A stretch of DNA of 64,000 nt. It comes from Bacteroidia bacterium (GTDB lineage: Bacteria > Bacteroidota > Bacteroidia > Bacteroidales > JAPLDU01). Position numbers and translations under genes: made by a program. The DNA is taken from assembly GCA_026391255.1 (NCBI GenBank), contig JAPLDU010000069.1, forward strand, positions 367 to 64,366, written 5' to 3'. Below, piece after piece: positions 6,638 through 36,530 of this stretch. Position 1 is the stretch's first letter. Each line of letters starts with the position of its first letter. The notes beneath the pieces were generated by a model. It searched no databases, was not told the DNA's origin, and saw only the letters and a program-made list of their open reading frames with translations.

Positions 6638-7198
6638 TTAAAATATTTCCATTTCTCCAAATGATGCAAACCTCCCATTTCCCTTAGCCATCCCATCAGC
6701 CACCTCTATGATAACGTCCACCTCATGGGCATTCTCGTTTTTGCCCCGGAAGTTACCTTCTTTGGTGGTGTGGTAAATGAAGATAAATGATGTTCGGGGA
6801 TTGTCCTGGCGAAGCTGGCGGAGATAGTCCAGGTCGAAGCCGGCACGGGAAACGCTGTCAATGAATACGAAGTCGTATGCTGATAGGTTGTACGGGACTG
6901 CTTCTGAAACATACAGGTTAGGGTCAATTGCCCTGAGCCGTTCCACTTTTTCCTTCAGGGTGTAACCGAACTTTTCTTCAATGGCACAGTAGAGAACTTT
7001 TCCATGATATTTGGCGAGGTGCTTTGCAAAGTCAATGCAGAGGGTAGATTTGCCGGATTTGGGAAGTCCATAAACCATTGCTGAAAACCCAACGCAGGGA
7101 TCACCGATCAGTTCCCGGTATTTTCCCTGGAGACCGATGGTTTCAAATTGCATCTGGGCAAGACGGGTACTGGAAATAACGCCGGAATCTGCTTTCAC
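6638..7198 (-). CDS. RecA-superfamily (Sms/RadA/KaiC-like) P-loop ATPase; probably the C-terminal part of a -1 frameshift fusion with 7195..8169
   Basis: Walker A GLPKSGKST, Walker B FVFIDS, HTTKEG..RG...AHEVD; weak GTG start; frame is open back to the A9 run at 7237-7245. Confidence 0.8.
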   Translation of the reverse strand: MKADSGVISSTRLAQMQFETIGLQGKYRELIGDPCVGFSAMVYGLPKSGKSTLCIDFAKHLAKYHGKVLYCAIEEKFGYTLKEKVERLRAIDPNLYVSEAVPYNLSAYDFVFIDSVSRAGFDLDYLRQLRQDNPRTSFIFIYHTTKEGNFRGKNENAHEVDVIIEVADGMAKGNGRFASFGEMEIF

Positions 7199-15837: not shown

Positions 15838-15981
15838 TTACTTTTTACGTTTCCACTCTTTGCCTGCTTCTTTTACGCAGGTAGTCCATTTTTTACGCGG
15901 GTTCTCTTTGCGGATTCGTTTGGCCATAGCCATGATCTGCTTGCCGGTTGAAGCCAGCTTGGTTTTAGATAATCTTGCCAT
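15838..15981 (-). CDS. Small very basic protein (47 aa), candidate DNA-condensing/core protein; not in ORF track
   Basis: Hand translation MARLSKTKLASTGKQIMAMAKRIRKENPRKKWTTCVKEAGKEWKRKK; A-rich leader; fills the operon gap. Confidence 0.65.
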   Translation of the reverse strand: MARLSKTKLASTGKQIMAMAKRIRKENPRKKWTTCVKEAGKEWKRKK

Positions 15982-16085
15982 TGTAGTTTTATTTAATTGG
16001 TTAGTAATCTTTTATCGGTTGGGACGTACGACCGTACGTCCTTACATTGTCCTGATACCTGATACTTGCTACCTGATACCCGTAC

Positions 16086-16730
16086 TTAGGCTTGCAACTC
16101 AATCAGGCCGTTCACTCCCGTTATTTTCAGGATATAGTTGTACAGTTCGCTACTGACCTGTTTTGCCTGTGCTAAAGTCTCGATAGCAGTTTCGCCTTTT
16201 GGTTTAAAGAAATATCCCCGGTTGTAACGCATGATTACCTTGTCAAGCCTGAGCACTCCATTTTCATCATGCTGATCAATCAGAAGCCCAAGCAGGATAG
16301 AGCCACAGAGGATATTGAACTCAGTGTCTAAAAGATCGTCCTGATATACATAGCAACCATCCGACAGATTATTCATTGATAAAATGCTATCGAGCCTGTC
16401 ATCCAGTACCTTTCTAAGGACAGTCTTTTCATCCTGCGAGAGCCTGTCTTTCTTATATTCTAAGAGAATAGTATCATTGGCTGATTGAGGTTTTAACTGC
16501 ATCAGCCCGGTAGAGCCTGATTTGTTAGCAGCATCTTTAACTCCGCCACTCTCAGCAAAAATGATTGAAATAATAATGGCAGCCGGAACATTGGTTAGCG
16601 TTTCAGCTTGTTTGATCTCATTAAAAAAATCAGAAGCAATACTGCCAAGCTTTTTCTTAATAGACGGAATATCCGTAGTAGGGTAATATCCCTGGTCGGT
16701 AAAGGGAAGGGTGAGTTCAAGATTTGCCAT
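16086..16730 (-). CDS. Lytic transglycosylase (SLT/lysozyme-like), probable endolysin
   Basis: IIFAESGG, STGLMQL, RYNRG motifs. Confidence 0.85.
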   Translation of the reverse strand: MANLELTLPFTDQGYYPTTDIPSIKKKLGSIASDFFNEIKQAETLTNVPAAIIISIIFAESGGVKDAANKSGSTGLMQLKPQSANDTILLEYKKDRLSQDEKTVLRKVLDDRLDSILSMNNLSDGCYVYQDDLLDTEFNILCGSILLGLLIDQHDENGVLRLDKVIMRYNRGYFFKPKGETAIETLAQAKQVSSELYNYILKITGVNGLIELQA

Positions 16731-17761: not shown

Positions 17762-18502
17762 TTATGTAGTCTGATCCACAAAAACACTCATTGTAAGATT
17801 CTTTGGTGTTCCGCTGACAGATAATACGGTCAGCATAAGTTGATCTCCATCGGTTATGACCAGACTATCAAATGTTTTACTATCCTTTAAAGGTCGGATG
17901 TCAATCTCCGCATTCATTATTGAAAAGGTATCCTTGCATGAGTTTGCCACAATAAAGTATTTGTTCTTAAACAGGCTGTCCCATTCCTGTGAGTTTCCGG
18001 AACCGGTGAACTGTATTAACTGACCGTTAGTGAAGCCATGATTAGCTGCTGTGACAATACACTTTGCAGAACGTGTGATTGCCGATACGTTTTTACCCCC
18101 GGTGACAAAATACCCTGATTTATAATCAGTAGTAAGCTGGGAGGTATCTACATCACCAAAAGTCAGGTAGTTACTGCCACAGCTTAAAGTGGCAATGATA
18201 TTGGTTCCACTGCTAATTTGGTAAAAACAGACTGCAGGCGTTGCACTCATCCATGAAGGGATGCTGAAAAAAACAGGATTGATGTAATCCGTGTCACCCG
18301 AGGCGACACGGATTTCTCCACGTACTGTGAAGTGTACACCAATCCTTTGAACCATTTGACCGACAAGGGCAAGTTTTGATTCGTCATAGGAAGATTTATC
18401 ATACCAACCATCTGACTTTGGAACCAGCTTGCGGTAGCCGGGTGACGGCTCAGAAGCGGAGCTGACCTCCCTGTGTTCTTTCTGTATAAAAACCTTATTC
18501 AT
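17762..18502 (-). CDS. Virion structural/spike-like protein
   Basis: Beta-rich; segment ITRSAKCIVTAANHGFTNGQLIQFTG resembles modules seen in phage structural proteins. Confidence 0.5.
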   Translation of the reverse strand: MNKVFIQKEHREVSSASEPSPGYRKLVPKSDGWYDKSSYDESKLALVGQMVQRIGVHFTVRGEIRVASGDTDYINPVFFSIPSWMSATPAVCFYQISSGTNIIATLSCGSNYLTFGDVDTSQLTTDYKSGYFVTGGKNVSAITRSAKCIVTAANHGFTNGQLIQFTGSGNSQEWDSLFKNKYFIVANSCKDTFSIMNAEIDIRPLKDSKTFDSLVITDGDQLMLTVLSVSGTPKNLTMSVFVDQTT

Positions 18503-18517
18503 TGAAATTTGATAAGA

Positions 18518-19789
18518 TTAGCCTGCTACTACTGCTTTGAATGAACCGGTGGGATAAGCCGGGTTGAAGTTAACGGTGAACCTGTTGGTCGGATCTGTTC
18601 CTGCTTTCGTTATGTTTGCCTCGAATTCTTCTTCTGTATTACCGTCAAAAAGCATGATGGACAGATCAGAAAGGGTTTTTCCGAGGTTGTGGATCACATC
18701 AAAAGAAGCGGTTGAACCATTGGTTGGTACGGTGATCACCCTCTTAATCGGGAAGTTCACAACGCTGAGAGGGGTAAGGGCTGTACGGTTGTCCGATTTT
18801 GCTTCGGCTACAGCCTGGGTAGCCAGCATGGTATAACCCTTTAGAGTTTCAGTAGCCTGTTCCAGGTTGCTCTGGATGATAAACCAGTTAGCACCGACGG
18901 TTGCCTGGTTACCTGCAACAGATGCATCCACCGAACAGATAATTGTATCGCCCACATCGACGTTTGCACCTGCTGCACCACCGATTTTACCTGCCACAGT
19001 GACCTTGTAGGTATGACCAGCATCGGCAGCCGGGTAGTTTGGATTGGCAGAGCAGTCCAGTCCGCCTTTCAGCACCATAGCATCGTTTGCGCTAAGAACT
19101 GCATCGATTGCCGAGCGGACTGCTTTTTCAGTTGCAAAATCAACATCAGTTGCAGTGGCAGCATTGCGGACAGTTGTCTGTACTCCGAAGCCGTCAACAA
19201 TGGCATCCCCGTTTGCACCTGACCATTTGGGAACTTTACCATCTGTTGATGAAGCGGCCTTCTTGACCTGGGCATCATTGGTCACATTGTTCAGGGAAAG
19301 CAAAGATTTTGCCTGTGCGGGAGTCAAATCAGCGGGAGCTGCTGCCCCGGCATTGTTATTCCCCTTGATCGTGTTAGCGGGCATATTGGCCAGCTTCGTG
19401 TTGTCCACATTGTTTTTCAGGTAGTCCGTACCTTCAACGGCTGGCCCGGCTACTCCGTTTGCATCAGTCTTGACAAGTCCGGCGCCACCGGCATAGTCTT
19501 TTGCAGAGCGATCTGCTCCGGCACTGACAACAAGGGTGTTCTGTGCAGCGGAAGCCGTAGCCCTGGTGATCATGTTTACCACACCGGGAATATCCGCAGA
19601 ACTTGCAAGGATAATAACCGACGTGCCATTGTAGTACTTGAGTTTGTGATCTGTGATGTTTTCCCAGATCAAACCTTCTGTTAAGGCTGCACCCGATGGG
19701 TCTGCTGCCAACTTGTGAATGACTGCATTCTTAAGTTCATTCTTGTTTAAATCTATCGGTAGATAGAATTGTTTTGGATTAATTGCCAT
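18518..19789 (-). CDS. Fibre/spike protein
   Basis: Ala/Gly/Thr-rich; N-terminal DLNKNELKNAVIHKL..P...EGLIW; ATETLKG fibre-type repeat; C-terminal HNLG domain. Confidence 0.65.
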   Translation of the reverse strand: MAINPKQFYLPIDLNKNELKNAVIHKLAADPSGAALTEGLIWENITDHKLKYYNGTSVIILASSADIPGVVNMITRATASAAQNTLVVSAGADRSAKDYAGGAGLVKTDANGVAGPAVEGTDYLKNNVDNTKLANMPANTIKGNNNAGAAAPADLTPAQAKSLLSLNNVTNDAQVKKAASSTDGKVPKWSGANGDAIVDGFGVQTTVRNAATATDVDFATEKAVRSAIDAVLSANDAMVLKGGLDCSANPNYPAADAGHTYKVTVAGKIGGAAGANVDVGDTIICSVDASVAGNQATVGANWFIIQSNLEQATETLKGYTMLATQAVAEAKSDNRTALTPLSVVNFPIKRVITVPTNGSTASFDVIHNLGKTLSDLSIMLFDGNTEEEFEANITKAGTDPTNRFTVNFNPAYPTGSFKAVVAG

Positions 19790-19863
19790 AAGTTTAAAGT
19801 TTTAAGTGTTAAGTTATTAAGTGTTAAGAAGAATTTAATTCGTAAATCGTAATTTGTAAATCG

Positions 19864-20313
19864 TCAATTGATAATTATTGTTCCTGACATAACTTCAGAA
19901 AAGCCAATGGTGACGGTGTTGTGGTTTATCAGTTGTACATCGGCTTCAACCGGGTTGCCAACTGTGTTCAGTACCCTCACGTTTACCAACCTGTCTTGAT
20001 TATGTTCAATTTGAATCATTGTTTGATTTTCAAATGGATATTCTAAAGGTGTATTGTTCAGAATGACTTCTTCCCAATTTTGAGGTGTTAGCGGATCGGA
20101 GATGTTCACTAATCTGTACATTTTCCCGTCTGATTCTGTACAAACCAGCATGTATAGCTCCAGCCTCTGTGGTTTGATCCCGTCTCTTTCGGTTATATCT
20201 GTTACCGTTCTGTATCCTCCTTTGCCCCAGATGGCAAGGTGTGACGGGTACACATCCTCCGACGAATAGGGAACGACCGGGGCTGCTATGTTTACCCCCT
20301 GGATTAGTGGCAT
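19864..20313 (-). CDS. Small fibre-associated protein
   Basis: GKGGYRTV..ITERD.I...R head-like segment; C-terminal IEHNQ...VEADV...NTVTIGF domain similar to the end of 18518..19789. Confidence 0.55.
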   Translation of the reverse strand: MPLIQGVNIAAPVVPYSSEDVYPSHLAIWGKGGYRTVTDITERDGIKPQRLELYMLVCTESDGKMYRLVNISDPLTPQNWEEVILNNTPLEYPFENQTMIQIEHNQDRLVNVRVLNTVGNPVEADVQLINHNTVTIGFSEVMSGTIIIN

Positions 20314-20319
20314 GGTTCA

Positions 20320-21063
20320 TTAATTGATGATATTGATATTGACACTTGAACCAGTCTGGTAGCCGGTGTTGAATAGTTTGTAAGCCCTTATTATCCCGAA
20401 TTCATCGGTGATTGTGACATCAGTCATAGTGTAACTTGAGAAATCAAAGCTTCCGTTTTTCACAGACTGCGGGTTACCATACGAGGCAGGGTAAAGGATA
20501 TATATATACTTTCCACCAGTGCAATTGTAATCGTGGTTTTCTGCTTTTGATGAGGCAAGATGTTTGTCAGAGATTAGTTCTTCTGCATAGTCCTTTTTAA
20601 TAGTCAACCGGTTAATCAAATCAACAGGTGTCAAAAAGCTTGCTCCATAGTAATTGGCTTGTTTCCAATTTACTGACACGCTTGCCTGTGCTGTTTTTCC
20701 TGCTTTATCTGTTACCGTGAGAAGGAATGTCTTGTCTTCATCCTGGACAAGTCGCCCGGCGAATGTCCCAGTCTGGCTGCCCCCTGTCACAGGGATAGAT
20801 TGTCCGTCTATGTCAATACTGGTAATAGGTTCACTACCTTCTGTCACCGACCAGTATAAATTAACATCCAGGTCAGGATTACCAATTTCCTTTTCTCCGC
20901 CTCCAATAAGTAAAGCCACCGGAGGCTTACCGGGATAGAAATAACCTTCCAGGAACTCTGACACTGTTTTTCCACCTATCGTAACAACCGGTATCCCCGA
21001 ACGTGTCGTTGGGCGGTCACTGTCAAAATCTGCGCTGTCATCAATTTTTATTACAATTTCCAT
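20320..21063 (-). CDS. Structural protein with Ig/PKD-like beta domain
   Basis: TFLLTVTDKAGKTAQASVSVNW; beta-rich. Confidence 0.5.
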   Translation of the reverse strand: MEIVIKIDDSADFDSDRPTTRSGIPVVTIGGKTVSEFLEGYFYPGKPPVALLIGGGEKEIGNPDLDVNLYWSVTEGSEPITSIDIDGQSIPVTGGSQTGTFAGRLVQDEDKTFLLTVTDKAGKTAQASVSVNWKQANYYGASFLTPVDLINRLTIKKDYAEELISDKHLASSKAENHDYNCTGGKYIYILYPASYGNPQSVKNGSFDFSSYTMTDVTITDEFGIIRAYKLFNTGYQTGSSVNINIIN

Positions 21064-23665: not shown

Positions 23666-24004
23666 TTATAAAGGTTGTACCTGTATGAAAATAAATTCCT
23701 GTGCAATGTCTGGGTTGCTTGTCTCAATGTCAATGTTCCCGGTAAAATCACGGGATAGCAACTCGCTGTCCCCTTTTTTGTAAGTTGTAATGCAGTTATC
23801 TGAATAAATCGTGGCAGTGTCTTCAATGGTCATGCTGCGCACGAAATAGAGTTCGTTGAATGCCTGCAAACGAATGAAACCTCCTTCGACCGTCACCTTC
23901 TTTTCTTCCCAGTGAAAGCGGTCCGTGGAAAATACCTCCCTGATGCGCTGGCTGATATATTCCTGCAGGACATTGAAATCATTGATATGGATACTGATTT
24001 CCAT
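23666..24004 (-). CDS. Small beta-rich putative structural protein
   Basis: 112 aa, alternating hydrophobic pattern, overlaps the upstream gene. Confidence 0.45.
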   Translation of the reverse strand: MEISIHINDFNVLQEYISQRIREVFSTDRFHWEEKKVTVEGGFIRLQAFNELYFVRSMTIEDTATIYSDNCITTYKKGDSELLSRDFTGNIDIETSNPDIAQEFIFIQVQPL

Positions 24005-24387
24005 TATTTCTTCAGGAATTTAAGGTAAATTGTAAGGCGGTATGGTACGAAGTCTCTTTTTTCAGCCAGTGTGGATAAGTCCCGGTAAAACCCGGTCATG
24101 ATATTTCTATTATTGATTGGTTCATTTAATGGCAGAAACTTAACTGGGCAGGGTGGTAAATCTTTCGTATATCCGACATGGTAGTTGACCGGGTGCAGGT
24201 GGCGATTACAAAATTCAAGGCTGATCTCCCCGACATGCTCAATATCCGAATCAAAGTTCCCTTGAGCGGAAAAATGAACCCCGGTCAGCTTGCAAAGACT
24301 GGTAGGCAGTTTTTCCCTGATCTCGATTACCTGGCCTATAGAAATTACCTGGTAAGGGATTGCAATTCGTTTCTTTACTCGCAGCAT
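24004..24387 (-). CDS. Small beta-rich protein, paralogue of 24375..24782 (candidate single jelly-roll capsid/penton protein)
   Basis: VISIGQVIEI / LTGVHFS / GFYRD / VPYRLTIYLK align by eye with VTSAGQSVKV / VRGLRVS / IKYVD / FPYDAVLYLK. Confidence 0.5.
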   Translation of the reverse strand: MLRVKKRIAIPYQVISIGQVIEIREKLPTSLCKLTGVHFSAQGNFDSDIEHVGEISLEFCNRHLHPVNYHVGYTKDLPPCPVKFLPLNEPINNRNIMTGFYRDLSTLAEKRDFVPYRLTIYLKFLKK

Positions 24388-24782
24388 TGGTTTGGTTTTT
24401 TAACAGTGGGAGGGTTCTTTAACTTGAGATAAAGCACAGCATCATAGGGAAAGGTAACCCCGTCGGTAAATCCACCATCCACGTACTTTATCTCCACTTT
24501 ACTATCGGCTGCATTGACAAACTCATCCTGGTCAAACTCGAAGTACTCGTTTATTTTTGCAGATTGGTTGCAGAAAAGCAGTTTGGTTTCATATTCGTCC
24601 GGAAAGATTTCTTCCTCGTCAATCCTCAGTCCGATGGTACTTGCAAAGTGGTGACGGTCATCAGAAATGCTGACACGCAGTCCCCTGACTTCAGCAAACA
24701 GCATGTTGGTGTTTGCCGAGACTTTGACCGATTGACCGGCAGAAGTGACACGTATCTTGATGGGCTGGTATTTTGTGTTCAT
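24375..24782 (-). CDS. Small beta-rich protein (candidate single jelly-roll capsid/penton protein)
   Basis: 135 aa of short alternating-pattern strands; paralogous to the next gene. Confidence 0.5.
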   Translation of the reverse strand: MNTKYQPIKIRVTSAGQSVKVSANTNMLFAEVRGLRVSISDDRHHFASTIGLRIDEEEIFPDEYETKLLFCNQSAKINEYFEFDQDEFVNAADSKVEIKYVDGGFTDGVTFPYDAVLYLKLKNPPTVKKPNQCCE

Positions 24783-24863
24783 TGTAGCAATAGATTTAAA
24801 GTTCCTGAAATAAGGGAAGGGAGATATATTTCAATCTCCCGTTCCCTCTGGCAGTCAGGAAAA

Positions 24864-25568
24864 TTAATATTTGGTAACAGAAGTGCCCATAAGTATAGCC
24901 TTCAGGAAGAAGTTTGCAGGGGTATTAGTTCCCCATTCGATGTTCATTTCCATGGCCTGCTGGTCAAAGATCATCTTCGGGTTGTCAAGTGTAAAGCAGC
25001 CTTTACGTGCTTTCATATCCGTTGTGTTGAATACTTCGCATGACATAGCCGGGATAATGGTCGTCCCGTTGGCACGGAATTCAAACTCACCGTTACGGAT
25101 AATTTCCGGGATAATGTCGAAATTGACATCGAAAATGGTCTGCGTACCGGTTGCTGTACCTGCAAGCAGAATGATCGAGTGAAGCAGCATGATATTGCCT
25201 TTTTCAAGCTTTGCACTTGAGATGTTTGACACGCCAACAACCTTGTTGTCATCGTCACGCAGCATCTTTGCAATTTTGCTCAGGGAGATGTTCTTTGAAA
25301 GGTAAATTGCCACATTAACGGCCTGTAGCGCCTTGCTGGCAATTCCGGCCTGTGTCTCACGGGGTAGCATCGGTATGCGTTTTTCGAACTCACCACGGGA
25401 GTTGTTCGAAGGTATAACGGTAATGGGTTTTTGTTGGGACTGTATCTTTTTAAGAAATTTTTTACGGTCAGCAACAGGGGCAGCTTCAAGAGCTCCCAGA
25501 AGTTCTTCTTCATTCACTGCTCCAAGCAGGTTGTATTCGCTTAATGCGATTTCTCCTAATGTTATCAT
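24864..25568 (-). CDS. Candidate major capsid protein (helical N-terminus plus beta-sandwich)
   Basis: 234 aa; C-terminal ~140 aa has a beta-strand pattern (IMLLHSIILLAG, GEFEFRANG, MEMNIEW, FLKAILMG); fold is inferred only. Confidence 0.45.
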   Translation of the reverse strand: MITLGEIALSEYNLLGAVNEEELLGALEAAPVADRKKFLKKIQSQQKPITVIPSNNSRGEFEKRIPMLPRETQAGIASKALQAVNVAIYLSKNISLSKIAKMLRDDDNKVVGVSNISSAKLEKGNIMLLHSIILLAGTATGTQTIFDVNFDIIPEIIRNGEFEFRANGTTIIPAMSCEVFNTTDMKARKGCFTLDNPKMIFDQQAMEMNIEWGTNTPANFFLKAILMGTSVTKY

Positions 25569-25666
25569 TTGTGTATTTGTTAATTGGTTAATAATTTGAT
25601 TTTTCGTTGAGACGCACAGCCGTGCGTCAGTACATTTTCCTGATACTTGATACCTGATACTTGATA

Positions 25667-26143
25667 CTATAGTATTTCTGCATCCTGGAAATCATCATTT
25701 CCGGCAATTCCTTCCACAGAGGGTTGTTCAGGCTGTGAGGCTGAGTTTTCAGGAAGTTGGGGAAGATCGGGGCGGTACTTTTCGATGGAGAGGGTAAGGG
25801 GTTCACGGTTATCTGTACCAATCCCTCTGTTTGTATTACCCAACCCGGATAGCAACTCCTTTTTAAGAATCACTCTTACTCCACTTGCAACTCCCGATAT
25901 TGCTACACCGGTTGCTACCATCTTAATGTTTTTATCCTTTACCAGGATAGTAGCTCCGGCCCCGGCTGCAAGCAGTACGGCAGGTTTAACAAGAGATTTA
26001 AACTGGAAACCGGTGACTGTTTCATCCACAGGCACAACCTTGTCAATCAGTTTGCCTGCAAAGTTTCCCCCGATTATTCCTGCAATGATCAGGGCAGGGG
26101 CTTTTAGTTCTTCTAAAATTGTTTTTAATTTCGGTGATGTCAT
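25667..26143 (-). CDS. Membrane/virion protein with Gly/Ala-rich hydrophobic helices
   Basis: ALIIAGIIGGNFAG, AVLLAAGAGATILV, MVATGVAISGVASGV. Confidence 0.6.
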   Translation of the reverse strand: MTSPKLKTILEELKAPALIIAGIIGGNFAGKLIDKVVPVDETVTGFQFKSLVKPAVLLAAGAGATILVKDKNIKMVATGVAISGVASGVRVILKKELLSGLGNTNRGIGTDNREPLTLSIEKYRPDLPQLPENSASQPEQPSVEGIAGNDDFQDAEIL

Positions 26144-26184: not shown

Positions 26185-27981
26185 TTATTTGAGTGTTACA
26201 CTTTTGATGATCTTCTCTGATTTTTTATGGGATTCCTTTAAGTTTTTCCTTGTTTTTTCAACTCCTGAAAGTGATGGCTTCTTTTTGCCTTTTTTCACAA
26301 GGGATGAAATTCCCCATATCCCAAGTCCGGCTGCTCCGATAATTAGTAATGGTTTTAAGAAACTTCCGGTTTTACCTATTTCCTGTTCTGATGTTGCCTG
26401 AGAATCGGTAGAAGATTCAGCAGGTAAATCTGCCGGTTTCCCTGGATCAGTTGATGAAGGATTATCCCCGGTAGTTTTTGCAGGTTCTGTGCCAGGTGTT
26501 TGCGATTGTGATTGCAGGTCGTTAATGACATTATTGGCTGCATCCTTATGAACAAGTCCTGAATCAGCAAGTACTTTCAGTGTCAGGATAATTAATGGAG
26601 ACGCTGCAGCAACTGAAGCAGCAAGTACAAACCCAAGATTACCTGTTCCGCTAATTCCTTTTGCTTTACCGTTAAGAATAGCACTTCTTAGTTTGCTGCG
26701 CTGTCCTTGCAATTTATCAGCGAACATTTTCTCGACTTTGTCAAGGGCTGATTTTGATTTTTTCCAGTCCTCTGAGCTGATCCTTTTTGCTTTTGCCTGT
26801 TGCTCGGTTGCATAGCCCCATTTCAGTTTGGATGCCATACTGCCAATGTCAAGTTTCATGGCAAGCAAATATGCGGACCTAACAGCAATGGATGCAGGGT
26901 TAAAACGAATGAATGCCTGTCCGCCTTTCTTGACTGCCTCACCGACCTTATTAAAGAAACCTTTGAGTTTTTTCTTGAGACTTCCCAGGGAAGAAGCCAA
27001 TTCAGCGCCGGATAGTCCGTCAAGTTCCTGCCAGTCATCATCCAGACCGGACAGGTCAAGGTTCTCATCGGTTTGTGAAAGTCCGTTCTTTTTGTTCCAG
27101 TCGTCCTCGTTTTTGGCAAGGTTTTCGAGTGCCTTGTCACGGTTTGGTGTGTTCCATGCACCAATGGCATAATCAAGCATTTGGATAAAAGCAGGCGGGT
27201 AATCCACACTTGCTATCATTTTTGGATTAGAAGCCACCAGTTTCCTGTTCTTTACAAGGTAGCTGTAAATAGCTTTCAGACGTTCTTCTTCCGAGGTGTC
27301 GCCAATGTTATTTATTCCTTCCAGGTCACGGGCAAAGACCACATCATTAAACATGGTATCATCCCCTGTACCTGAAAGTACTGCAATGTCTATTCCTGCT
27401 AAGTGAGCGGAACCGGAGTTAATGTTCATAGGAAAATCTTTTTTTTGTGAATAAGGTTTTTCGTAGTTAAATCTTGAAAGTACGCAGTCAATAGTGTAAT
27501 ATGAACCGGACTCAGGGATGGGCACAACCACGTACACGTGCTGCCAGGTGTTCTGGTCATATTTGGTGATACGAAAAGTGTGCGGGATTTGAAGGTTAAG
27601 TAGTATGGTTGAAACAAAAATGGAAAAACAGTCGCAGTCAATGCCCAGGGAGCGTTCCTGCCAAGAGCGTGCAGGGCGGCGCAGTTGTTCCATCCCCTTT
27701 TTATCGAGCCGGTATTGTATATGGTTATAAAGGAAGTCCCAGATGTTATCGCAGGTCTGGCGAAGTGAACTAGCTTTGAGTTGTGGAGCCAGTTTTTCAG
27801 TGTCGGCCTTGTATTTCCAGGCTACCTGTTTCATCAGGTCAACCGTTTTATCAGCGTCTCCGTCCCTGATCATTATCCTATCCTTATCCTCTGGTTTAGG
27901 GAATAACTGATCGAAACGGTCGCCCTTTTTGATTGGCCGGTAACCGGAAGTGATATTACCAATATGGAAAAGTTCGCTCAT
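26185..27981 (-). CDS. Transglutaminase-like (papain-fold) Cys protease domain fused to a membrane-anchored structural region
   Basis: GIDCDCFS (Cys), WQHVYVV (His), YTIDCV (Asp); C-terminal TM LLIIGAAGLGIWGISSLV followed by KKGKKK. Confidence 0.75.
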   Translation of the reverse strand: MSELFHIGNITSGYRPIKKGDRFDQLFPKPEDKDRIMIRDGDADKTVDLMKQVAWKYKADTEKLAPQLKASSLRQTCDNIWDFLYNHIQYRLDKKGMEQLRRPARSWQERSLGIDCDCFSIFVSTILLNLQIPHTFRITKYDQNTWQHVYVVVPIPESGSYYTIDCVLSRFNYEKPYSQKKDFPMNINSGSAHLAGIDIAVLSGTGDDTMFNDVVFARDLEGINNIGDTSEEERLKAIYSYLVKNRKLVASNPKMIASVDYPPAFIQMLDYAIGAWNTPNRDKALENLAKNEDDWNKKNGLSQTDENLDLSGLDDDWQELDGLSGAELASSLGSLKKKLKGFFNKVGEAVKKGGQAFIRFNPASIAVRSAYLLAMKLDIGSMASKLKWGYATEQQAKAKRISSEDWKKSKSALDKVEKMFADKLQGQRSKLRSAILNGKAKGISGTGNLGFVLAASVAAASPLIILTLKVLADSGLVHKDAANNVINDLQSQSQTPGTEPAKTTGDNPSSTDPGKPADLPAESSTDSQATSEQEIGKTGSFLKPLLIIGAAGLGIWGISSLVKKGKKKPSLSGVEKTRKNLKESHKKSEKIIKSVTLK

Positions 27982-34976: not shown

Positions 34977-36200
34977 TTATAAACTTGTGGCAAATTTTTG
35001 TTGAAGTTTCGACATATCCCTGGCTACCTTCTTGTCCAGGAGCCGGGCATAAACCTGGGTCATTTTTATGGAGCTATGGCCAAGCATTTTTGAGACACTT
35101 TCAATAGGAATATCGTTATTAAGTGTCACTGTTGTCGCAAAGGTATGACGTGCCATATGCGTTGTCATTTTTTTCCTGATTCCACACATATCAGCAATCT
35201 CCCTCAGATAGGCATTCAGTTTTTGGTTGGAATACACCGGTAATAAAACATGGTGGTTTACACAGTGTGGATTGTCTTTGTACTTTTCTACAATTTCCAT
35301 AGCAGGGGGTAGGAGAGGGATGTGACTGGGATTGTCGGTCTTTGTCCGTTTAGTGTGTATCCAATAATTTCCATCTGTAGCCTGTACCAGGTTATCAGGG
35401 GTCAGTTTTTTAAGATCAGAATAGGCAAGTCCAGTAAAACATCCAAACAGAAATGTATCCTTCACATTCTCTAACCTTTCTATCTGAAAGTCCTTCTTTA
35501 TAATCGTATTCAATTCGTCTTCCGTTAAAAAATCCTTTTCGACTTTCCTTAATTTGAACTTTAATTCGGCAAATGGGTCTTTTGAAATCCAGCCTTTGGC
35601 TTGTGCCAACCTTATTATCTTCTTGAAATTCTTAATGTATTTCATGGTTGTATTATGCCCGCAATTCCTGTCAGTTTTTAGGTATAGCTCAAACCCCGAT
35701 AAGAATTCATGATCAATATCTTCTACAGGAATATCTTCCTTCCGGTACTTTTTCTTTATATAATCCTGCACATGCATCAGGCTGGTTTCATAACGTTGCA
35801 AGGTTGCCGGGGCAAAATCCTTCCCGACTAAGAGTTTTACCTGATTGTTATGCTCATGGAATAAGGAAATGATGAGCTTTTCGTGTGATTTTCCGAGATA
35901 AGATTCCTTAATTGCACTTGGAGTAACCTCCTTTCTTGAATCAATTAAGCGATTGAGATGTTCATTCAAATCGAATTGTGTTCGCTGTATGCACCGGTTG
36001 ATTTCTTTTGCCTCTTTTAAGTTTCCAATTGCTGCTTGCTTTTCAGGACACCAAAGCTCCGGCTGGATGGATTTGAAAATTGAAAACTCAGCATCCTGGC
36101 TGCCAATTCTGATTCTTGCAAAAATTGGTGCTTCACCGTTTTTGAGAAGTTTGGTTCTTTTAATGATGAACCTGATCAAGACATTTTTCCTGTTCGACAT
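34977..36200 (-). CDS. Tyrosine recombinase/integrase (Bacteroidota Arm-DNA-binding type)
   Basis: FGCFTGLAYSD, HMARHTFATT, LGHSSIKMTQVY. Confidence 0.95.
   Translation of the reverse strand: MSNRKNVLIRFIIKRTKLLKNGEAPIFARIRIGSQDAEFSIFKSIQPELWCPEKQAAIGNLKEAKEINRCIQRTQFDLNEHLNRLIDSRKEVTPSAIKESYLGKSHEKLIISLFHEHNNQVKLLVGKDFAPATLQRYETSLMHVQDYIKKKYRKEDIPVEDIDHEFLSGFELYLKTDRNCGHNTTMKYIKNFKKIIRLAQAKGWISKDPFAELKFKLRKVEKDFLTEDELNTIIKKDFQIERLENVKDTFLFGCFTGLAYSDLKKLTPDNLVQATDGNYWIHTKRTKTDNPSHIPLLPPAMEIVEKYKDNPHCVNHHVLLPVYSNQKLNAYLREIADMCGIRKKMTTHMARHTFATTVTLNNDIPIESVSKMLGHSSIKMTQVYARLLDKKVARDMSKLQQKFATSL

Positions 36201-36442: not shown

Positions 36443-36530
<88 letters not shown>

Follow-up and report, generated by a model that had tools for sequence, protein, structure and literature searches.

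Four adjacent genes in a Bacteroidia genome as a candidate shell-protein module of an integrated tailless virus

What do four small, adjacent and unannotated genes in the genome of a Bacteroidia bacterium encode? The genes, here called p0, p1, p2 and p3, span positions 23666-25568 on the minus strand of a 64,000-nucleotide stretch of contig JAPLDU010000069.1 (assembly GCA_026391255.1, positions 367 to 64,366 of the forward strand), referred to below as the window. On balance we favor the view that together they form the shell-protein module of a temperate virus that is integrated, tailless and probably membrane-containing, is widespread in Bacteroidota and is known from its genes alone, with p0 as the best candidate for the major capsid protein of the module. 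We infer the capsid role from fold, conservation, gene context and elimination. The initial annotation, made from the sequence alone, had placed four small genes here, and four minus-strand open reading frames (ORFs) are found at these coordinates:

24864-25568, minus strand: p0, ORF of 234 amino acids (aa)
24375-24782, minus strand: p1, ORF of 135 aa
24004-24387, minus strand: p2, ORF of 127 aa
23666-24004, minus strand: p3, ORF of 112 aa

The last three genes are tightly packed, with a 13-nt overlap between p1 and p2, a 1-nt overlap between p2 and p3, and a gap of 2 nt between p3 and a 290-aa coiled-coil-type gene (g290). Spacers lie on both sides of p0, of 81 nt towards p1 and of 98 nt towards the upstream 158-aa gene (g158). 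As syntenic homologues of each of p0, p1, p2 and p3 occur in 19-22 loci, these are conserved genes and not chance ORFs. None of the four proteins matches Pfam, PHROGs or NCBIfam, and no paper found in literature searches describes the family. A scan for transmembrane (TM) and N-terminal segments revealed no hydrophobic stretch in p0-p3 fit for a signal peptide or membrane anchor, which indicates that the proteins are cytoplasmic. The initial description of the products as beta-rich stands for the C-terminus of p0 and for p1 in AlphaFold2 models, and for p2 by homology.

The fold of p0 provides the clearest indication of function. A monomer model built with AlphaFold2 on a 79-sequence alignment (predicted local distance difference test score, pLDDT, 84.6; predicted template-modelling score, pTM, 0.75) contains helices in residues 4-77, of which 47-54 are disordered, and an 8-strand jelly-roll domain at residues 81-233 with a short helix between strands six and seven. 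The strand-patterned C-terminus of about 140 aa that had been noted in the 234-aa protein thus corresponds to these eight strands. The best Foldseek matches of the model in the PDB are jelly rolls of the viral major capsid proteins of SGIV and PBCV-1 (probability ~1.0), and the matches include 8hif (E 1.4e-4, probability 1.0) and 8h2i. Next in the list are EhV-201, ASFV p72, SPV1 single jelly-roll capsid chains (6oj0_A, E 2.9e-3, target-normalised TM-score 0.44) and BMV, with the non-capsid jelly rolls of Ena3A/Ena1C, the furin P domain and the Sf6 needle knob lower down. A search of BFVD likewise returned major capsid proteins of nucleocytoplasmic large DNA viruses at the top (probability ~1.0), plus assorted jelly rolls and no close relative. 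The match of p0 to capsid proteins is one of predicted fold only; searches of PDB sequence profiles with alignments A1, A3, A4 (that of the p3 family) and A5 yielded nothing meaningful. The jelly-roll folds proposed initially are upheld for p0, with capsid proteins ranking first in both structure libraries, and more weakly for p1 and p2, whose matches are generic sandwiches.

Conservation points to the same protein. p0 has the highest identity within the module (50-68% across Bacteroidales, Chitinophagales and Flavobacteriales), compared with 38-55% for the upstream 598-aa protein g598, 26-61% for p1 and 26-34% for p2. An exhaustive profile search placed 543 clusters at 50% identity in the p0 family, and the 411 relatives in a 90%-clustered collection are without exception labelled hypothetical. 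Among the best 150 of the 543 clusters, lengths range from ~90 to 283 aa, nearly all complete members have 200-280 aa and no member has room for two jelly rolls; in this set, a few profile matches are split into two stretches. A comparison of 89 diverse family members with PHROGs gave no match, and tblastn of p0 and of g598 against the INPHARED phages gave none either. Unlike p1 and p2, p0 is free of lineage-specific loop insertions, and its loops carry unusually conserved charge (DDDNK, KLEKG, NGEFEFKANG). The possibility that p0 is a third paralogue of p1 and p2 was rejected at the sequence level (hhalign probability at most 7% against p1/p2 and p3, the deep alignment included).

The conserved N-terminal arm of p0 contains two tandem LLGA motifs (NLLGAV, ELLGAL) at residues 13-27 (~25488-25532). 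One LLG persists in the deep p0 alignment, and the p0 homologue of the IMG/VR contig L029 (9923-10648, 32% identical) has LMGIG and NLLGQ. As judged from their sequence, these motifs would fit glycine-motif processing by the product of the neighbouring protease-like gene.

The initial annotation had also called the 135-aa and 127-aa proteins paralogues, and their family profiles confirm this. When p1 and p2 are compared directly with BLASTP, their similarity does not reach significance (20% identity, E 0.044). Relatives bridge the two families (L002_p1 versus L002_p2, 2e-4; L001_p2 versus L006_p1, 5e-6), and the p1 and p2 family profiles align over their full length (hhalign probability 97%, E 1.2e-10, positions 1-122 versus 2-125). 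In the joint alignment G34 is invariant in both, and G98 and Y113 are near-invariant. By these sequence comparisons, p1 and p2 are true, diverged paralogues. The family required an alignment search to be recovered, a word-based homologue search from p1 alone returning 4 proteins. Among its 115 members just three isolated stray matches to Pfam were found; the UniRef label "SipL SPOCS domain" on the p2-type homologue P0138 of Rurimicrobium arvi (142 aa) was not reproduced in this comparison and was set aside.

The AlphaFold2 monomer model of p1, built on 115 sequences (pLDDT 83.6, pTM 0.76), is a compact jelly-roll-like sandwich, classed as one of 8 strands, with seven long strands (at least 3 residues) and two short bridges. 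Its weak Foldseek matches are to the CCMV, CMV and BMV coats, the furin P domain, BcsB, FlhE, Ena3A and nucleoplasmin-like pentamers. Both p1 and p2 evolve fast and carry lineage-specific loop insertions, of 25-90 aa between the last two strands in Chitinophagaceae p1-type proteins. The elements of this family encode two p1-type proteins (154 and ~195 aa), one p2-type protein (142 aa) and one p3-type protein (114 aa), and thus three jelly-roll paralogues each; in the second p1-type gene of L011-L020 (for example, L011 7252-7839) the insertion is a Gly/Ser/Pro-rich segment of 70-90 aa. The p2 of L029 has 228 aa and an insertion of ~80 aa; a reading of this protein as a p1-p2 fusion was rejected, as it consists of one domain with that insertion. 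Insertions of this kind are what one expects at vertices or towers exposed on the surface. It is improbable that the paralogous pair supplies the principal shell protein.

For p3, the family alignment (A4) has invariant I66, F87, G89 and F106 and suggests strands after a helix at the N-terminus. The p3 versions of Bacteroidales and of Chitinophagaceae are related to each other (hhalign E 5e-13). No sequence relation of p3 to p0 or p1/p2 was detected with hhalign and the deep profiles, and p3 has no match among PDB sequence profiles.

The two spacers that flank p0 contain features that bear on its expression:

25569-25666, minus strand: spacer 5′ of p0, with four GTATCA(G/A)G heptads, a GACGCAC-GGCT-GTGCGTC hairpin/palindrome and an A-rich leader
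24783-24863, minus strand: spacer 3′ of p0, with the stem-loop GGGAACGGGAGA...TCTCCCTTCCC (-29.4 kcal/mol)

The upstream spacer is one of two copies, at ~78% identity, of a cassette of ~115 nt. The other copy (15982-16093, minus) precedes a very basic ORF of 47 aa (15838-15981), and the stem differs between the copies by a compensatory change of C/G to T/A (GACGCAC...GTGCGTC versus GACGTAC...GTACGTC). This sequence pattern suggests that the cassette is a strong, probably late control element common to two abundant virion components. The stem-loop after p0 is a candidate terminator, attenuator or stabiliser; stable hairpins that are unrelated in sequence directly follow the p0 stop in 10 of the 18 loci examined. 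The leader part of the cassette is also found 5′ of a 247-aa gene at 21063. The 47-aa ORF (minus strand; MARLSKTKL...KEWKRKK) is extremely basic and, placed behind the same cassette as p0, is a candidate core protein that would condense DNA. In small frames 5′ of g71 in the Chitinophagaceae loci L014, L015, L016, L021 and L023, a similar motif, (K/R)xW(T/I)xC(L/V)K, recurs with weak E-values only.

Because p0 is the most conserved protein, is bracketed by spacers and a hairpin and has its own upstream cassette, it is favored as the major protein. We propose that p0 would be the main shell protein, with a single jelly-roll domain, and that its helical, basic N-terminal arm could contact the membrane or the genome; the neighbouring protease-like protein may trim this arm at the conserved LLG motifs. 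Expression from what appears to be its own regulatory cassette, together with the trailing hairpin, suggests that p0 is made in excess, and translational coupling of p1, p2 and p3, to which g290 is coupled as well, suggests roughly equal, lower amounts of these three. The p1 and p2 proteins would then be further capsid components, either vertex or penton proteins or fillers of capsomer positions, with their variable loops facing outward, and p3 may be a minor shell or assembly protein.

The module lies within a block of ~6.6-28.2 kb that is entirely encoded on the minus strand and has a G+C content of ~42%, as against ~30-34% in the flanks. Por_Secre_tail proteins, together with the relatives found, place the organism in Bacteroidota. 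The features of the window needed to describe this context are as follows:

6638-7198, minus strand: g186, RadA/KaiC-like ATPase of 186 aa
22791-23663, minus strand: g290, coiled-coil-type protein of 290 aa, directly 3′ of p3, a conserved neighbour
25667-26143, minus strand: g158, 158 aa with two TM-like segments, conserved directly 5′ of p0
26185-27981, minus strand: g598, transglutaminase-like protein (cysteine-protease fold) of 598 aa with C-terminal TM segments (Pfam DUF553, 5e-5)
34977-36200: tyrosine integrase, adjoining tRNA-Ser
36443-36530: tRNA-Ser, beside the tyrosine integrase

Small TM-rich proteins surround p0-p3, among them a 71-aa TM protein also encoded 5′ of p0. In the 3′ direction, g290, a candidate scaffold or cement protein, is followed by a 59-aa protein (g59), a 294-aa TM protein, an SLT lysin and a 423-aa protein with tail-fibre domains, and further on by DUF6549, a second SLT, two DNA methylases, RadC, an SNF2 helicase and the RadA-like ATPase. 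The integrase at tRNA-Ser, the two SLT lysins, the fibre-domain protein, the TM-rich proteins and homologues of gp34 and gp40, two virion proteins of phage SSIP-1, together make this a virus-like context. A search of positions 1-30000 for an attachment-site repeat of the tRNA-Ser 3′ end found no common 14-mer. The four-gene fibre region (17762-21063) is unmatched in relatives; in L001, for example, the interval from SLT to DUF6549 measures only ~300 nt. The region has the look of an exchangeable cassette for host recognition, and since its fibre-like genes are unmatched in relatives, p0-p2 are the only conserved non-membrane beta-sandwich proteins of the element.

The order g598, g158, p0, p1, p2, p3, g290, g59 is kept among relatives, the part from g598 to g290 in 27 loci from Bacteroidales, Chitinophagaceae and Flavobacteriales, and g598 is syntenic in every locus long enough to show it. 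Carriers in culture include Taibaiella soli R1-15, Rurimicrobium arvi JCM 31921 and the Chitinophagaceae bacteria LGM1 and IBVUCB1. The 38.8-kb contig L029, with its 32% identical p0, has the same gene order and also carries a protease-like gene, an SLT, a fibre-like gene and a g324-like gene. Of 400 sampled Bacteroidota genomes, 10 (~2.5%) contain p0; these belong to six families and have up to 3 copies per genome, and the source genome of the window has one. Such a patchy, multi-copy distribution is the pattern of a mobile element. A look-up of one close p0 homologue gave integrated copies only, with no free circular contig among them.

The pairing of p1 and p2 raises the question of whether the module belongs to a known group of jelly-roll viruses. 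Helvetiavirae (Sphaerolipoviridae, Matshushitaviridae and Simuloviridae) are viruses with two vertical single jelly-roll major capsid proteins, such as P23-77, SH1 and HHIV-2. The element resembles them in having several small genes for predicted jelly-roll proteins side by side and in its richness in membrane proteins and lysins, and p0 (234 aa) has the size of the large major capsid protein of the haloarchaeal members. It differs in having three or four jelly-roll candidates instead of two and in that its paralogous pair is of only ~130 aa; of the adjacent candidates, p0 has a confidently predicted jelly roll and p1/p2 are generic (jelly-roll-like). In Bamfordvirae, the major capsid proteins of double jelly-roll type (SGIV, PBCV-1, ASFV p72) are the best structural matches of p0 (E 1e-4); they have two jelly rolls in one chain, whereas p0 has one 8-strand domain. 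PM2 P2 is the minimal form of this double jelly-roll type. Sulfolobus polyhedral virus 1 (SPV1, Portogloboviridae) is a virus of Crenarchaeota. Its capsid protein (6oj0) is a single jelly roll about as large as p0, its tailless virion encloses a membrane, and no packaging ATPase has been recognised in it; no common genes were detected, and the likeness of its capsid protein to p0 is at the fold level only. Ena/DUF3992 fibre subunits also match p0 and p1 at the fold level (Ena3A/Ena1C), but they are secreted, whereas p0-p3 have no hydrophobic N-terminal or TM segment and no Pfam match.

A different link leads to SSIP-1, a lytic halophage of Salisaeta with a circular genome of 44 kb, which is reportedly tailless and membrane-containing, with T=49 symmetry and two types of major capsid protein. 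The hosts of both fall within the Bacteroidota-Rhodothermota group. The transglutaminase-like domain of g598 matches the SSIP-1 virion protein gp34 (BLASTP 5e-10), as does L029, and the RadA-like ATPase g186 matches gp40 (BLASTP 8e-14), which is annotated as a virion structural protein. Both genomes have a protease-like gene 5′ of small structural genes, in an otherwise different gene order, and SSIP-1 is lytic and circular whereas the element here is an integrated provirus. By sequence comparison, the link holds for two non-capsid genes only, and the element is distantly linked to SSIP-1. A related ORF of g186 is found in L028 (24775-25737). g186 is the only small ATPase of the element and lies 17 kb from the capsid-like genes; it has no BLASTP match at E <= 0.05 to the P23-77 ATPase or to PM2 P9. 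Its relation to gp40 raises the idea that a RecA-type virion-associated ATPase could serve as the packaging enzyme of the lineage instead of one of A32/FtsK type.

Several results weigh against reading the module as a viral shell. The element is known from genes and predicted folds, and not from particles, transcripts or a proteome. The whole-query TM-scores of the p0 matches are modest (0.33-0.38), as expected for a domain that covers only ~150 of 234 residues, and p1 has no Foldseek match at E below 1e-3. Non-capsid jelly rolls (Ena fibres, furin P domain, BcsB, tail knobs) share the match lists of p0 and p1. Searches with hmmsearch --max using the p0, deep-p0, p1/p2 and p3 profiles returned nothing at E <= 1 against VP16, VP17, VP11 and VP15 of P23-77; the p0, p1/p2 and p3 profiles do not match PM2 P2 or P1, nor the ORFs of SSIP-1 (best E 0.27-0.5). 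The FtsK/HerA (A32-like) packaging ATPase, a hallmark of Varidnaviria, was not recognised in the element, and none lies beside p0-p3, where the flanking genes encode protease-like, TM and coiled-coil proteins. Of 2.9 million IMG/VR contigs, 1 carries the family. The initial proposal of paired major capsid proteins like those of sphaerolipoviruses is accordingly not supported, as neither similarity to VP16/VP17 nor an adjacent A32-like ATPase was found, and p0 is the better candidate; the structural match to VP16/VP17 that it had suggested looking for is absent from the top 50 Foldseek matches of p0 and p1.

Three other explanations have to be weighed against p0 as the main shell protein of a virus. 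The roles within the shell may be exchanged, with a p1-p2 heterodimer acting as a split double jelly roll, three per pseudo-hexameric capsomer, to form the major shell, and p0 acting as a penton base or membrane-anchoring vertex protein. Equimolar synthesis is suggested by the adjacent, overlapping paralogous genes, the combined length of p1 and p2 (262 aa) is near that of PM2 P2 (269 aa), the insertions in their loops are tower-like, and the extra N-terminal helical arm of p0 recalls some vertex proteins. We regard this exchange as unlikely, since p1 and p2 evolve much faster than p0, the fold matches of p1 are weak, Chitinophagaceae have three paralogues and not two, and the hairpin and separate cassette indicate p0 as the over-produced protein. 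Another explanation places the jelly-roll proteins outside the shell altogether, as fibres or appendages (Ena-like), as carbohydrate- or receptor-binding proteins or as nucleoplasmin-like chaperones, the true capsid being unrecognised or absent. The jelly roll is a promiscuous fold, the loops of p0 are unusually conserved in charge, and Ena3A/Ena1C, the furin P domain, BcsB, the Sf6 needle knob, gpJ and nucleoplasmin-like pentamers score similarly. Yet the top p0 matches (probability 1.0) are capsid proteins in both structure libraries, p0-p3 have neither a signal peptide nor a TM segment, and p0 is the most conserved protein whereas receptor-binding proteins are normally the least conserved. 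The element moreover already encodes a separate fibre-like protein, and no other conserved core gene is able to supply a shell, which makes a non-shell role quite improbable.

The element may also not be a virus at all, but a mobile element that integrates, or a particle-like system that has been domesticated, in which the module builds a non-infectious structure or which moves otherwise. Every copy seen is chromosomal, IMG/VR has almost no member of the family and INPHARED none, and the element lacks a terminase, a portal and an A32-like ATPase, as well as any recognised replication protein of known tailless phages; the SNF2 helicase, methylases and RadC resemble the leading-region cargo of conjugative elements. 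Conjugation genes were not found, however, and the lysins, the fibre-domain protein, the capsid-like folds and the homologues of two SSIP-1 virion proteins are present, so that we consider a non-viral element very improbable. An extension of the viral reading is that the element represents a deep, undescribed tailless lineage with a shell of three single jelly-roll proteins, in which p1/p2 resemble an unfused double jelly roll and a RadA-like virion ATPase replaces the A32/FtsK motor. This version appears doubtful to us; if true, the lineage would be a taxon of family to kingdom level that is common in Bacteroidota, and a living intermediate in the evolution that led to double jelly-roll capsids.

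Since sequence-based detection misses the capsid genes of tailless membrane-containing phages, these phages are badly under-sampled. For all its >500 clusters, the p0 family is found in none of Pfam, PHROGs, NCBIfam and INPHARED, and hardly at all in IMG/VR. The module offers a set of candidate capsid genes that can be put to the test, from an element present in ~2.5% of the Bacteroidota genomes sampled. If the assignment is confirmed, the p0, p1/p2 and p3 profiles would let virus-detection pipelines recover the group, SSIP-1 would gain its first relatives, and the combination of a conserved single jelly roll with a diverging paralogous pair would bear on the origin of the double jelly roll.

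Two further observations concern genes outside the module. The 423-aa fibre-domain protein (18518-19789, minus strand) has an N-terminus that resembles streptococcal prophage tail fibres; over residues 214-317 it shares 56% identity with a tail-fibre-domain protein of Xanthomonas phage Rb1. Positions 888-1940 of L029 encode a patatin-like phospholipase (Pfam 3e-35), ~8 kb 5′ of the capsid-like module, a noteworthy gene in a virus that would have a lipid membrane to handle.

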